DNA from: Candidatus Scatovivens sp.
Lineage (GTDB): Bacteria > Bacillota > Clostridia > TANB77 > CAG-508
Reading direction: 5' to 3'
DNA length: 64,000 bases
NCBI GenBank assembly: GCA_045646345.1
Contig: JAZRKN010000016.1
Location: 1,693 to 65,692, forward strand
Position numbers and translations under genes: made by a program
Part shown: piece by piece, positions 47,293 to 60,445 of the stretch
How positions within the stretch are numbered: the stretch's first letter is position 1
Layout of the letters: each line of letters starts with the position of its first letter
The notes under the pieces: model-generated
Told to the model about the DNA's origin: nothing
Database searches by the model: none
What the model saw: the letters and a program-made list of their open reading frames with translations, nothing else

Positions 47293-48417
47293 TTATTCTG
47301 CTTCTGTACTTCCCCAGTGAATATTTACTTGTGTATTTCTTTCGTTATACCAATCATCTACCCATTCTTCTGGTTTTTCAGCATCTTCACAATATATATC
47401 TGTTAAATTATCACATTTTATAAAATTATCATAATCTATAACTTTTACTCCTGATTTTATAATTACAGTTGTTAAGCTTGGACAATCATAAATCGCAAAT
47501 TTGTCTATTCTTTCAACATCCCCTAAAAATGTTATTTTTTGTAAAGATGGACATTCTCTAATTGCAAATTCATTAATATATTGTGTATTCTTTGGAATTA
47601 CAAGTTCTTCTATTCCTGTCTTTTCAAATGCATATCCGCTTATATATTCTAGTCCTTCTGGTAATTCTATATTTTTTAAAGCATCACAACTATAGAAAAG
47701 TGATGATGAAATTCCTTTTACTCCAGATGGAATTTTAATACTTTCTAATGATTCGCAATCATCAAATGCATGCATTTTCATTGTTGTTACACTTTCAGGT
47801 AATTTCACTTCTACTAAATGACCACATTCTGCAAATGCATATTCACCAATTGTTGTTAATGATTCTGGTAATGATAAATCCATTAAGCTATTGCAATTAT
47901 AAAATGCGTAATCTCCTATTTCCTCAACACCTTCTGGAATGACTATTTTAGTAAAACGACTTTGAGATCCCCAAGCTGAATTATCTTTAAATGCATCATT
48001 TCCTATTTTTGTTACTTTATATTTTTTACCATTTTTTTCAACAACACTTGGTAAATCTAATTCATTATGAACATAAGTTCCAACTTTTATATATGCTGGA
48101 ATTATTTCTCCATCAGAATCTTCAAAAGCATATTCATCTTTTATCCCTGTAATTGTTGCTGTTTTTTCACTATCATTAAATTCAAATTTTAAGTATTCTG
48201 CAATGTGTTCTGCATCAAATTTTAGTTCTTCTTCCTCATCTTCGTCTTCTTCCACATAATCTTCTGTTACTTCATAATTTAAAGTTTCTTTTCCAGCAAC
48301 TAAATCTTCTTCTCCATTATTGCTTGATGTTATTACCACTACAGCTCCAACAGCAATAAATATCAATAATACTATTAAAATTAAAGCTATTAAAGTTATT
48401 CCATTTTCTTTTCTCAT
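47293..48417 (-). CDS. leucine-rich repeat (BspA-type) surface protein with N-terminal membrane anchor
   Basis: repeated LxxLxLPxxLxxIGxxAFxxC units; N-terminal TM; acidic spacer. Confidence 0.75.
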   Translation of the reverse strand: MRKENGITLIALILIVLLIFIAVGAVVVITSSNNGEEDLVAGKETLNYEVTEDYVEEDEDEEEELKFDAEHIAEYLKFEFNDSEKTATITGIKDEYAFEDSDGEIIPAYIKVGTYVHNELDLPSVVEKNGKKYKVTKIGNDAFKDNSAWGSQSRFTKIVIPEGVEEIGDYAFYNCNSLMDLSLPESLTTIGEYAFAECGHLVEVKLPESVTTMKMHAFDDCESLESIKIPSGVKGISSSLFYSCDALKNIELPEGLEYISGYAFEKTGIEELVIPKNTQYINEFAIRECPSLQKITFLGDVERIDKFAIYDCPSLTTVIIKSGVKVIDYDNFIKCDNLTDIYCEDAEKPEEWVDDWYNERNTQVNIHWGSTEAE

Positions 48418-48530: not shown

Positions 48531-48565
48531 AAAAGCGTTCCATCTATTAGGAACGCTTTTCTTTT
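48531..48565 (-). terminator. intrinsic terminator after the amino-acid ABC transporter operon
   Basis: stem aaagcgttcc/ggaacgcttt followed by U-run on the minus strand. Confidence 0.7.
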
Positions 48566-48591: not shown

Positions 48592-49335
48592 TTATTTTTC
48601 TACATTTCTAAATCTTTGAAGGAAATCCTTAGTTTCTTCTTTTTGTGGATTTACAAAAATATCTTCTGAAGTTCCTTCTTCAAGTATTATACCATTATGC
48701 ATAAACACAACATGATTTGATATCTCTTTTGCAAAAGCCATTTCATGAGTAACTATAATCATTGTAAACCCTTCTTTTGCTAAAGTTTTTATAACTGATA
48801 GTACTTCTCCAACCATTTGTGGATCTAATGCCGATGTTGGTTCATCAAATAGTAGCACTTCTGGCTGCATTGCTAATGCTCTTGCTATTGCAACTCTTTG
48901 TTTTTGACCTCCGGATAATTGTTTTGGCTTAGCATTTATAAAAGGTGTCATTCCTACTTTTTCTAAGAAAAATAAAGCTTTTTCTTTTGCTTCATTTTTA
49001 CTTATTTTTAACACTTTTTCTAACCCAATCATACAATTTTGAAGAACATTCATATTCTCAAAAAGATTAAAATTTTGAAATACCATACCTACTTTTGTTC
49101 TGTAATTTGGAATATCTTTTGAGTCTAAAATATTTTCTCCATTAAAAAGAATCTCTCCTCCACTTGGAGTTTCCAATAAATTAATACATCTTAAAAGAGT
49201 AGATTTACCTGATCCTGATGCTCCAATTATTGAAGTTATATCACCTTTTTTTACTGAAAAATCTATATCTTTTAAAACTTCGTGGCTGCCAAAATTTTTA
49301 ATTAAATGTTTAATTTCAATAATTTTCTCACTCAT
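48592..49335 (-). CDS. polar amino acid ABC transporter ATP-binding protein (GlnQ/TcyC-like)
   Basis: Walker [10 protein letters not shown], signature [14 protein letters not shown], Walker [12 protein letters not shown]. Confidence 0.95.
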
Positions 49336-49336
49336 T

Positions 49337-50131
49337 TTATTCTACCTCCTTTTTTGAAGGATATTTTAAAAGTCCACTAGTATAAGCTAATGTATCAGTT
49401 GTTGAAAGAGAATAATCTTCTGGACCATTTAATTTATTTTCAACTATTCTTAATAATTTTGAACAAGTTACGGTCATAAATAAATACATTATCATTGTAA
49501 CTGTATATGCTTCAAAATATGTATAATAAGTTCCTGCTACAGACTTTGTAGCAAAAAATAATTCTACTGTTCCAATTACAGAAAGTACACAAGTATCTTT
49601 TATATTAATTATTAAGTTATTTCCTATTTGAGGCATTATATTTCTTGTTGCTTGAGGAAGTATTATATAAAGCATTGTTTGGAAATGATTCATACCAATT
49701 GCTTTTGCACCTTCTGTTTGTCCATCAGATATTGATAGTATTCCTCCCCTTACAGTTTCAGCCATATATGCTCCTGTATTTATTGAAACTATAAAAAATG
49801 CAGCAAACCACATACTCATATTAATTTCAAAAACAACAGCAGAACCATAATATATAAACATTGCTTGAACCATCATTGGAGTTCCTCTAAAAACCTCCAC
49901 ATAAATATCCATTATTGCTTTTAATGTTTTTAAAAATATTTTCTTAAATAAATTATCTCTTTTGGAAACCGGTATTGTTTGTATAATTCCAACAACAAAT
50001 CCAATTAAACAACCTATAATTGTACCAACTAATGCAATTAATAATGTTGTCCCAGCACCTTTTAAAAGAGAAGTTCCATATTTTTGAATAATAAATATAA
50101 TTCTTCCTAAAAAGTCTTGTGGTAAACTCAT
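49337..50131 (-). CDS. polar amino acid ABC transporter permease
   Basis: HisM/GlnP-type permease with EAA-like loop. Confidence 0.9.
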
Positions 50132-50150: not shown

Positions 50151-51014
50151 TTATTCAGATAATGGTTGAACACTAATTGCAGTATTCATCATTTCTTCAA
50201 AATCTGTTGTATCAAGTTCAGCTAATGCTGTATTTAATTCGTTTAATAATTCTGTATTTCCTTTTTTCACTGAAATACCAATATTTATTTCTTCTTCTGA
50301 AACATTAAAATTATCATTTTCAGAATTTGTAAAATCTAATAATTTAAAATCTGGATAAACTTTTGTTGCAGCCATTGCTGTTGGCATATCTGTTACAACT
50401 AAATCTGTTTTTCCTGAATCTAATGCTACTAACATTTGTGACGCAACTTCCATTGCTGGTAAAATATTTGCATTTTTAATTTGAGGTAAGCACACATCAT
50501 ACCAAACTGTATTTATTTGTGAAGTACATGTAGCACCTTCTAAATCACTAACTCCAGTTGCATCTGCATATTCACTATCATTTTTTGTTAATCCTACGAT
50601 TGAAGCATAATAATATGGTGTAGTAAAATCAACTGTTTGTAATCTTTCTGAAGTAATTGATTGACCAGCTATAACACAATCAATTTTGTTTGATTGAAGC
50701 GCTACTGGTAAACTATCCCAATCAATTTGATAAATTTCTAATTCATATCCTAATTTTTCTGCTAAAAATTTTGCTACCATTACATCATATCCATAAGCAT
50801 ATTCTGAACTTCCTGCTATTGGAACAGCTCCGTTTGATGTATCTGATTGTGCCCAGTTATATGGTGCATATGCACACTCCATACCAACTCTTAATACTTT
50901 TGTTTCTTCACCTTCATTTGTGTCTACTGTTTGGTTTTGGCATCCTGTAAGAGTTACTAATCCAATAACCAATAAAATTAAAGTAATACTTAAGTTTCTT
51001 AAAATGTTTCTCAT
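50151..51014 (-). CDS. amino acid ABC transporter substrate-binding lipoprotein
   Basis: lipobox LTGCQ; SBP_bac_3-like. Probable start MRNILRNLS at 51014 with RBS GGAGGG. Confidence 0.85.
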   Translation of the reverse strand: MRNILRNLSITLILLVIGLVTLTGCQNQTVDTNEGEETKVLRVGMECAYAPYNWAQSDTSNGAVPIAGSSEYAYGYDVMVAKFLAEKLGYELEIYQIDWDSLPVALQSNKIDCVIAGQSITSERLQTVDFTTPYYYASIVGLTKNDSEYADATGVSDLEGATCTSQINTVWYDVCLPQIKNANILPAMEVASQMLVALDSGKTDLVVTDMPTAMAATKVYPDFKLLDFTNSENDNFNVSEEEINIGISVKKGNTELLNELNTALAELDTTDFEEMMNTAISVQPLSE

Positions 51015-51400
51015 AATAAAACCCTCCACTAAATTTATTTTTAAATATCTGTTAATGATTAGTGGAATTTTATGTTTGTAAAACAAAAAATTCGTGAATG
51101 ACTACTTACATAGAACATTCACGAACACAATAATTTACATATCAAAATAAAGATATATTAAATATATCATTCGATTCTAGATAGCGCTCCACATAAGTGA
51201 CAGTTCGTTACATATTTTGCAACGTCCCAGCAATATTTATTTAGACGATAAATATAACTTCGGCAACATTTCCTTTCAAGCAAATATAGGAGTCTATTCC
51301 ACTTAATTTACTTTACTCTTAAACATCGCGACCTCTACCAATAGTCATTGGGGTTACCAATAACAGATTATTTAATTGTTTTTAAGTTTAGCATAGATTT
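51015..51400 (-). ncRNA. candidate structured cis-regulatory leader (riboswitch or attenuator) of the amino-acid ABC operon
   Basis: Roughly 330-nt 5' UTR, noticeably GC-enriched for this genome. Promoter TTGACA-17-TAAACT near 51380-51410. Terminates in a hairpin ttcgtgaatg-N15-cattcacgaa (51091-51125) followed by a U-run just before the RBS. Confidence 0.45.
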
Positions 51401-51512
51401 TTTTCTTTGTCAACATAATTTTAATTTTTTATTTTAAAATCCTTCGCTTTACTTTTAGATAAAATCGTGCTATCATATATTCTTGTGTGAATAATCAAAT
51501 TTTGAATAAAGA

Positions 51513-52274
51513 TTGGAGAATGCGAAAATGTCATTATTAGGAATCGTTCGGGATCAACATCTATTACTGCTCTTTGCAGTACAATTTGTAACCTCATTTT
51601 GCTTTATCTACTATGGGAAAAATAAACTCAGCTTTATTTCAGAAATCTTACTAATAATAAGCTGTGTTTTATACCATAAAACACCATTTAACTTGGACAT
51701 ACTACATTGCTATATTGCTGAATATATTTTACTGAAACTTTCTCTTGTTTTGATTGTATATATCGCAAAACGCTTTGCTTTTTTCATTTTGGTAGTAATA
51801 ACCCATAAAGAAAAATACAAAAAAGCGTATAAATTTCTTGTAAAAAAGAAACGTTTTTTGCGATTCCAATCACGCATATGGAATAAAGTAAAATACGGCA
51901 TTAGAATCAAAAAGGGTATTCCATCGATGGTAAACAAAAGAAATGCTCAGCACGGAATTTCTTTTGATAGTGATGGTTTCCCAAAGTTCAAAGTCATCAC
52001 TGAGGTTTACATAGATTCGTGTTATTGGAAAAAAAGCCGAGATGTACATTTTTATCAAGCAAATCGGCAATTATATACTCGAATCAAAAAATACTCTAAA
52101 CTTTCCAAAAAATTTACCAAAAACGAAATCAAAGAATTCAAGCAAGGAAATACTCCTAAAAAATATACTTGGCATCATCACCAAGATAAAGGATTGTTAC
52201 AGCTTGTCGATTCTGAAATTCATGCAAAAGTTCGTCATAATGGTGGATTTTCGATTTGGGGCCCAAGAGAATAA
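51513..52274 (+). CDS. ORF ending in a WHH-type HNH/EndoVII nuclease toxin domain; N-terminal part probably degenerate (orphan toxin module)
   Basis: C-terminus KKYTWHHHQDKGLLQLVDSEIHAKVRHNGGFSIWG matches the WHH nuclease signature (W-HH ... H ... H-GG). N-terminal 130 aa is low-complexity hydrophobic and may not be translated. Alternative start MVNKRNAQHG at 51927. Confidence 0.55.
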   Translation: MENAKMSLLGIVRDQHLLLLFAVQFVTSFCFIYYGKNKLSFISEILLIISCVLYHKTPFNLDILHCYIAEYILLKLSLVLIVYIAKRFAFFILVVITHKEKYKKAYKFLVKKKRFLRFQSRIWNKVKYGIRIKKGIPSMVNKRNAQHGISFDSDGFPKFKVITEVYIDSCYWKKSRDVHFYQANRQLYTRIKKYSKLSKKFTKNEIKEFKQGNTPKKYTWHHHQDKGLLQLVDSEIHAKVRHNGGFSIWGPRE

Positions 52275-60356: not shown

Positions 60357-60445
60357 GCAGATGTGGCGGAACTGGCAGACGCACAGGACTTAAAATCCTG
60401 CGGGACCTAAATCCCGTGCCGGTTCGATTCCGGCCATCTGCACCA
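60357..60445 (+). tRNA. tRNA-Leu (anticodon UAA) with encoded CCA
   Basis: acceptor stem gcagatg/catctgc, anticodon loop cTTAAaa, long variable arm, T-arm ccggTTCGATTccgg, terminal ACCA. Confidence 0.9.

Follow-up and report, generated by a model that had tools for sequence, protein, structure and literature searches.

Organization of the locus and its leader

The window analysed here, a stretch of 64,000 nucleotides from a contig of Candidatus Scatovivens sp., carries on its minus strand three consecutive genes of a polar-amino-acid ABC importer, which are preceded by a long non-coding leader (Table 1). The palindromic terminator behind the ATPase gene, for which 0.0 occurrences are expected in shuffled sequences, can work in both directions and closes the three-gene operon. 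When read in the direction of transcription, the leader region consists of a promoter, a small hairpin, a structured block of 172 nt, an AU-rich spacer, a terminator hairpin with its U6 run, about 60 AU-rich nucleotides, the ribosome-binding site (RBS) and the ATG codon.

Table 1. Coordinates of the leader elements and of the operon (positions of the window; a dot stands for no assigned strand)
Feature	Position	Strand	Details
Sigma-70-type promoter	51385..51413	-	-35 box TTGACA 51413-51408, 17-nt spacer ending in TGc, -10 box TAAACT 51390-51385
5' leader hairpin	51344..51364	-	GUUAUUGG / CCAAUGAC; upstream of P1; in the MFE fold
Lysine riboswitch aptamer (L-box, RF00168)	51174..51345	-	P1-P5, five-way junction; P1 strands 51340-51335 and 51184-51179
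L2 loop	51292..51296	-	UAGAC; kissing partner of GUCUA in L3, to which it is complementary
L3 loop	51242..51246	-	GUCUA; kissing partner of UAGAC in L2; covariation with L2
Predicted antiterminator, 5' strand	51174..51198	-	3' half of P5, J5/1 and 3' strand of P1; partner 51126-51104
Intrinsic terminator	51085..51126	-	10-11 bp stem UUCGUGAAUG / CAUUCACGAA, inner 4-bp stem, then U6
RBS and start codon of the binding-protein gene	51012..51027	-	GGAGGG 51027-51022, ATG 51014-51012; conserved in related leaders
Substrate-binding lipoprotein, SBP_bac_3	50151..51014	-	287 aa; Pfam PF00497, 7e-26; signal peptide, lipobox ...LTGC
ABC permease, BPD_transp_1, HEQRo type	49337..50131	-	264 aa; Pfam/NCBIfam matches
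ABC ATPase	48592..49335	-	247 aa; domain matches
Palindromic terminator	48531..48560	.	AAAAGCGTTCC-N8-GGAACGCTTTT; 11-bp stem

The TTGACA-17-TAAACT promoter was found where the original prediction had placed it. The promoter scan gave 10 of 12 matches together with the TG of an extended -10 element, and TTGACA and TGnTAnAnT stand in register in five related leaders, i.e., that of the window and those of the homologous loci L001, L002, L003, and L008. Transcription should start near 51378, about 7 nt past the -10 box, which makes the leader approximately 364 nt long up to the ATG and approximately 290 nt up to the terminator; the "roughly 330-nt" leader proposed initially was thus a fair estimate. 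As to the claim that its GC content exceeds the local background, it is true for the aptamer half (34.9% against 18-22% in the neighbouring non-coding DNA) but not for the region 51015-51400 as a whole, whose 28.2% is close to the window mean of 27.6%; the GC content of the aptamer is matched or exceeded by 12% of 172-nt segments. The fold of the whole leader is more stable than expected (z = -4.9), none of 100 shuffled sequences being equally stable.

Several other elements of the window were observed around the operon and elsewhere. Divergently from the leader promoter, an ORF (51513-52274, +) encodes a protein with a C-terminal Colicin-DNase (PF12639, 3e-28) and WHH (PF14414, 1e-16) nuclease toxin domain, and by these domain matches it looks like a nuclease cassette of the polymorphic-toxin or bacteriocin type. 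Past the operon terminator lies a gene (47293-48417, -) of a 374-aa protein with BspA-type leucine-rich repeats (PF13306, 2e-51), which has a promoter-like site of its own at 48487-48459. A tRNA gene at 60357-60442 (+, 59.3 bits) is the only Rfam match of gathering level in the window besides the one in the leader.

The aptamer

The scan of the whole window with cmscan revealed a match to the lysine riboswitch family (L-box, RF00168), which scores 107.3 bits (gathering score 30; E = 1.3e-27) and extends over model positions 1-182 of 182; no other cis-regulatory RNA was found in the window by this Rfam scan. The suspicion that the leader is a riboswitch, originally voiced without naming a class and with an Infernal/Rfam search as the suggested check, is thereby borne out, and the class is the L-box. 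Helices P1-P5, as well as the terminator, were recovered by unguided minimum-free-energy (MFE) folding of the 364-nt leader. As seen in the cmscan alignment, no block capitalized in the Rfam consensus is missing from the leader, the full set being AGAGG-GC, GAGUA, GAAAGG, GCCGAAG, CUGGG, ACUGUCAC, and GUGGAG-GCUA. The internal run ggtagaggtcgcgatg, which had been noticed earlier in the bare sequence, is indeed there and corresponds to the conserved L-box core (AGAGG-GC) with the start of P2.

The positions described as highly conserved around the lysine pocket (in T. maritima numbering G9-G12, G14, C15, G77-C79, G80, A81, G114, U140, G141, G163, and C166; PMC3764141) are contained in the blocks AGAGG-GC, GCCGAAG, CUGGG, ACUGUCAC, and GGAG-GCUA, the correspondence having been established by block and not by a residue-by-residue structural alignment. 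Most positions of these pocket blocks are invariant or at least 90% conserved among 17 homologous leaders. The K-turn is a different matter: its consensus tandem G.A (GA...UGA) reads UA...UAU in the window and in its close relatives, the posterior probability of the alignment is lower there, and an obvious GA/GA tandem occurs in none of the 17 relatives in the aptamer alignment. The K-turn is not universal in the family, however, as in T. maritima it is replaced by the P2a-L2 turn (PMC3764141). By its membership in the family, in both sequence and structure, the leader is assigned to the lysine riboswitches and should accordingly bind lysine.

Upstream of P1 the MFE fold contains an additional hairpin, which overlaps the Rfam aptamer model only at its first two unpaired positions (51345-51344). 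Both its arms are invariant and its loop is variable in the five related leaders, and the hairpin might serve as a stabiliser of the 5' end of the transcript. The hexamer UAUUGG is shared by the 5' arm of this hairpin and the 5' strand of P1. The internal pairing ccaatgactattgg (ccaat/attgg) proposed previously is probably not the fold that is used: it is absent from the MFE structure, where CCAAUGAC pairs with the upstream GUUAUUGG instead, and it is not conserved in L008 and L002, where the ATTGG half, belonging in fact to the 5' strand of P1, is altered.

Homologous leaders and covariation

The binding protein has thousands of homologues, and we used an alignment of 17 of them to fetch 80 loci from species-representative genomes, with 53-90% protein identity. 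These loci belong mostly to metagenome-assembled genomes (MAGs) of Clostridia and Oscillospiraceae from animal and human guts; the binding protein of L001, a Clostridia MAG from roe-deer caecum, is 90% identical to that of the window. The comparative set comprised Rfam scans of all 80 loci and a MAFFT alignment of 17 aptamers. According to the scans, a lysine aptamer lies upstream of the binding-protein homologue in 56 of the 80 loci, down to a protein identity of about 55%; this number includes L022, where the aptamer is about 1 kb away from the homologous gene, and L018, where it is cut by the contig end. The 24 loci without an aptamer include L015 and L075, which have too little upstream DNA to judge.

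RNAalifold, applied to the 17 leaders, returned the L-box structure with compensatory changes in 24 of 40 pairs, and when the L2-L3 pseudoknot is counted as well, double changes are seen in 27 of 45 pairs. In this structure 95.3% of the alignment cells are paired, compared to 34-45% when the partners are slid, and none of 500 shuffles was as good on any measure. The kissing loop itself covaries, being UAGAC/GUCUA in the window and UAGGC/GCCUA, CAGGC/GCCUG, or UAGGU/ACCUA in the relatives; its helix (helix 4) is 93% paired and shows double changes in three of its five pairs. The leader is thus conserved in related genomes, and with covariation, as the original prediction implied for a genuine regulatory element.

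Other riboswitches and variants of this one were seen in the same set of loci. Four lysine aptamers, at L014:2708-2860, L023:2706-2860, L031:109-262, and L071:2150-2303, are shorter (about 153 nt) and score 80-88 bits. The distal P2 arm (P2b/L2) of those in L014 and L023 is missing from the alignment, so that the L2-L3 kissing loop cannot form in these two as it does in the window. A molybdenum cofactor (Moco) riboswitch is located 3' of the transporter genes in L006 (5719-5868) and L045 (5513-5644), both of which have no upstream lysine aptamer, and riboswitches of other, unrelated classes (c-di-GMP-I, glycine, SAM, TPP) are found here and there in the flanks of several homologous loci.

Expression platform and proposed mechanism

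The perfect 10-bp hairpin with a U-run, which had been noted just before the RBS, is found at that place and represents an intrinsic terminator. Its arms, ttcgtgaatg (51125-51116) and cattcacgaa (51100-51091), are followed by TTTTTT, its energy is -16.1 to -16.5 kcal/mol, and it is a part of the MFE fold. The terminator scan of 50900-51700 reported no candidates, since its rule is limited to loops of 3-8 nt, whereas the distal part of the hairpin measures 15 nt and includes an inner stem. The terminator stem and, which is unusual, also its loop are conserved in L001, L002, L003, and L008, with the spacer scrambled, and in L008 the stem carries a compensatory change from C-G to A-U. Of 54 homologous aptamers tested, 51 have behind them a hairpin with a U-run that resembles a terminator, as does the aptamer of the window. 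A subthreshold similarity of the region 51060-51140 to the "Bacteroides-1" sRNA (25.8 bits, gathering score 43), the sole addition of a permissive Rfam scan of the leader (E <= 1), spans the terminator hairpin and was taken as a chance match.

The 5' arm and the loop of the terminator (51126-51104) constitute at the same time the 3' strand of a predicted antiterminator, which has an uninterrupted 14-bp core (51198-51185 with 51117-51104) and further pairs down to 51174/51126. The opposite strand is drawn from the aptamer itself (3' half of P5, J5/1, 3' strand of P1), so that the antiterminator and the ligand-bound aptamer exclude each other. In the nascent RNA lacking the 3' arm of the terminator, the antiterminator fold has an energy of -64.3 kcal/mol and the enforced aptamer fold one of -62.4 kcal/mol, the MFE structure dropping P1 and P5; the ligand-free states are thus nearly balanced. 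In the full leader the terminator fold (-72.7 kcal/mol) is favoured over the antiterminator fold (-66.6 kcal/mol), from which it follows that the decision must be kinetic, i.e., taken co-transcriptionally. Such a decision is the norm for the lysine riboswitch class. The complementarity of the aptamer 3' end to the 5' half of the terminator is stronger than in shuffled sequences both in the window (z = -2.5) and, on average, in 49 homologous leaders (mean z = -1.8, with 21 of them below -2). Computational folding predicts an alternative pairing of the 3' strand of P1 that excludes the terminator.

Taken together, the leader is very probably a lysine riboswitch (RF00168) by which transcription of the three-gene ABC importer, and hence a predicted import of lysine, is switched OFF. 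The proposed course of events is as follows. Transcription would start from the TTGACA-17-TGcTAAACT promoter, and the aptamer (51345-51174) would be made first. In the case when lysine is bound, P1 and P5 would be locked and the 5' arm of the terminator left free to pair with its 3' arm, so that the hairpin with U6 (51126-51085) would release RNA polymerase ahead of the RBS. When lysine is scarce, the segment 51198-51174 would pair with 51126-51104, and the antiterminator formed in this way would permit read-through into the operon. The binding of lysine would thus tip the near-balance of the two ligand-free states to the aptamer and, consequently, to the terminator. We infer the direction of regulation, lysine meaning OFF, from this architecture. 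The original view of a terminal attenuator controlling an amino-acid ABC transporter is supported by the full-length Rfam match and by the conservation of the leader, with covariation, in related genomes.

It might be supposed that the same lysine aptamer exerts its control mainly or additionally at the level of translation, through a downstream hairpin hiding the Shine-Dalgarno sequence. Indeed, the MFE fold of the full leader pairs UUCCACUAA (approximately 51066-51058) with UUAGUGGAG, partly covering the RBS, and this hairpin is found both in the window and in L001. However, it is situated 3' of the terminator and shares no sequence with the aptamer, so that lysine binding cannot toggle it; moreover, L002, L003, and L008 lack it or have it in an altered form, whereas the strong U6 terminator and the overlapping antiterminator are present and conserved. 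We consider translational control improbable for this leader, and the pairing in question (51024-51066, -) probably arises by chance or dampens translation weakly and constitutively.

A more speculative idea, to which we give only a slim chance, extends the OFF switch in two separate directions. On the one hand, the 5' hairpin, the repeated UAUUGG and the conserved terminator loop could mean that the terminated transcript of about 290 nt persists as a stable RNA that derives from the riboswitch and has a second function in trans; a function of this kind has reportedly been found for terminated SAM riboswitch transcripts in Listeria. On the other hand, the aptamers of this clade could bend P2 without a canonical K-turn.

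The regulated operon, its substrate and the ligand

The substrate of the importer cannot be fixed as lysine by homology alone. The best NCBIfam match of the binding protein is the Lys/Arg/Orn-binding subfamily TIGR01096, well below the cutoff; cystine, glutamine, and arginine models match it as well, every match being far below the cutoff, and a search of solved structures in the PDB gave distant relatives only. Under these circumstances, the riboswitch is the best evidence for lysine as the substrate, and we infer this substrate from it. In other words, the riboswitch gives a likely substrate to an otherwise unassignable polar-amino-acid ABC importer, one that many uncultured Clostridia and Oscillospiraceae of the gut possess, and marks its operon as presumably lysine-repressed.

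The same uncertainty of the substrate, together with the deviation of the K-turn positions from the consensus, could be taken to mean that an L-box-like aptamer has drifted to a related ligand, such as another basic amino acid or a lysine derivative, and that the transporter substrate has changed likewise. This appears highly improbable, as all the highly conserved nucleotides of the junction and of the pocket fit the consensus, the score of 107 bits is typical of bona fide members, and the K-turn is known to be replaceable, as by the P2a-L2 turn of T. maritima (PMC3764141). That the leader is of another sort (T-box, S-box or leader-peptide attenuator) or owes its GC content to chance is refuted for practical purposes, because the lysine model explains the whole structured region with the backing of covariation and because neither the T-box (RF00230, searched for in 50900-51600; the leader also has no specifier loop or T-box sequence) nor the SAM riboswitch (S-box, RF00162, searched for in the leader) gave a match even at E <= 1, in agreement with the earlier failure to recognize either of them by eye. 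With a lysine aptamer and no T-box, the leader is expected to respond to free lysine itself and not to the charging of tRNA.

The tool that gave no T-box in the leader of the window did detect one in L004 (CAYMVI010000002.1, an uncultured Eubacteriales MAG), where at 2407-2945, upstream of the homologous ABC importer, a complete Lys-specific T-box directly precedes a lysine riboswitch. The T-box scores 102.8 bits against a gathering score of 93, the 3' side of its specifier loop reads GAA-A-AAG-G with a Lys codon, and it has its own terminator, GCCUCUAGG...CCUAGAGGC-U5. The lysine riboswitch follows 39 nt later, is full (105 bits) and possesses a terminator of its own. Expression from such a tandem, found in one of the 80 loci, would depend on uncharged tRNA-Lys and on low lysine at the same time. 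A review of tandem riboswitches lists double lysine riboswitches (PMC9481103), and in its text we found no mention of the combination of a T-box with a lysine riboswitch.

Comparison with known systems

According to the papers citing the original work, lysine riboswitches were described in 2003 by Grundy, Sudarsan, and Rodionov. With such representatives of the L-box as the leaders of B. subtilis lysC and T. maritima asd (PDB 3DIL), the element of the window shares the five-helix junction with its conserved nucleotides, the sequence of the P2 internal loop (AGUA/GAA), the kissing of L2 with L3, the A-rich L4 loop (GCAAAAUAUGU), the terminator/antiterminator platform over the 3' strand of P1, and the predicted OFF logic. 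In contrast to these two leaders, it controls a transporter. It also deviates from the canonical L-box in having no tandem G.A at the consensus K-turn positions (UA...UAU), the K-turn being absent from T. maritima too, one extra nucleotide in AGAGGU-c-GC, and an additional conserved hairpin before P1. All these differences fall within the known variation of the family. Knowledge of riboswitches as such is left unchanged by this element, as standard pipelines running Rfam would annotate it automatically.

As for the T-box leaders of amino-acid ABC transporters, their gene context and terminator/antiterminator logic are those of the leader described here, which differs from them by the lack of an RF00230 match, a specifier loop, and a T-box sequence.

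The closest parallel in genomic context is provided by the LYS elements upstream of the lysX-lysY ABC transporters (COG0834), which Rodionov et al. (2003) put forward; in a later survey, lysine riboswitches linked to lysX-lysY were listed in Firmicutes, Actinobacteria, Fusobacteria, and Tenericutes (PMC5584792). There, as in the window, a polar-amino-acid ABC system (SBP_bac_3, HEQRo-type permease, ATPase) directly follows a lysine riboswitch in a Firmicute, and its substrate is predicted from the riboswitch. We know of no biochemical demonstration of the substrate of lysX-lysY. Unlike that system, originally named in Lactobacillales, the binding protein and the permease of the window are encoded by separate genes, and the host belongs to uncultured gut Clostridia. 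On the whole, the element possesses every testable defining feature of the lysine riboswitch class except for the optional K-turn, and it is an ordinary member of this family in a genomic context that has already been described.
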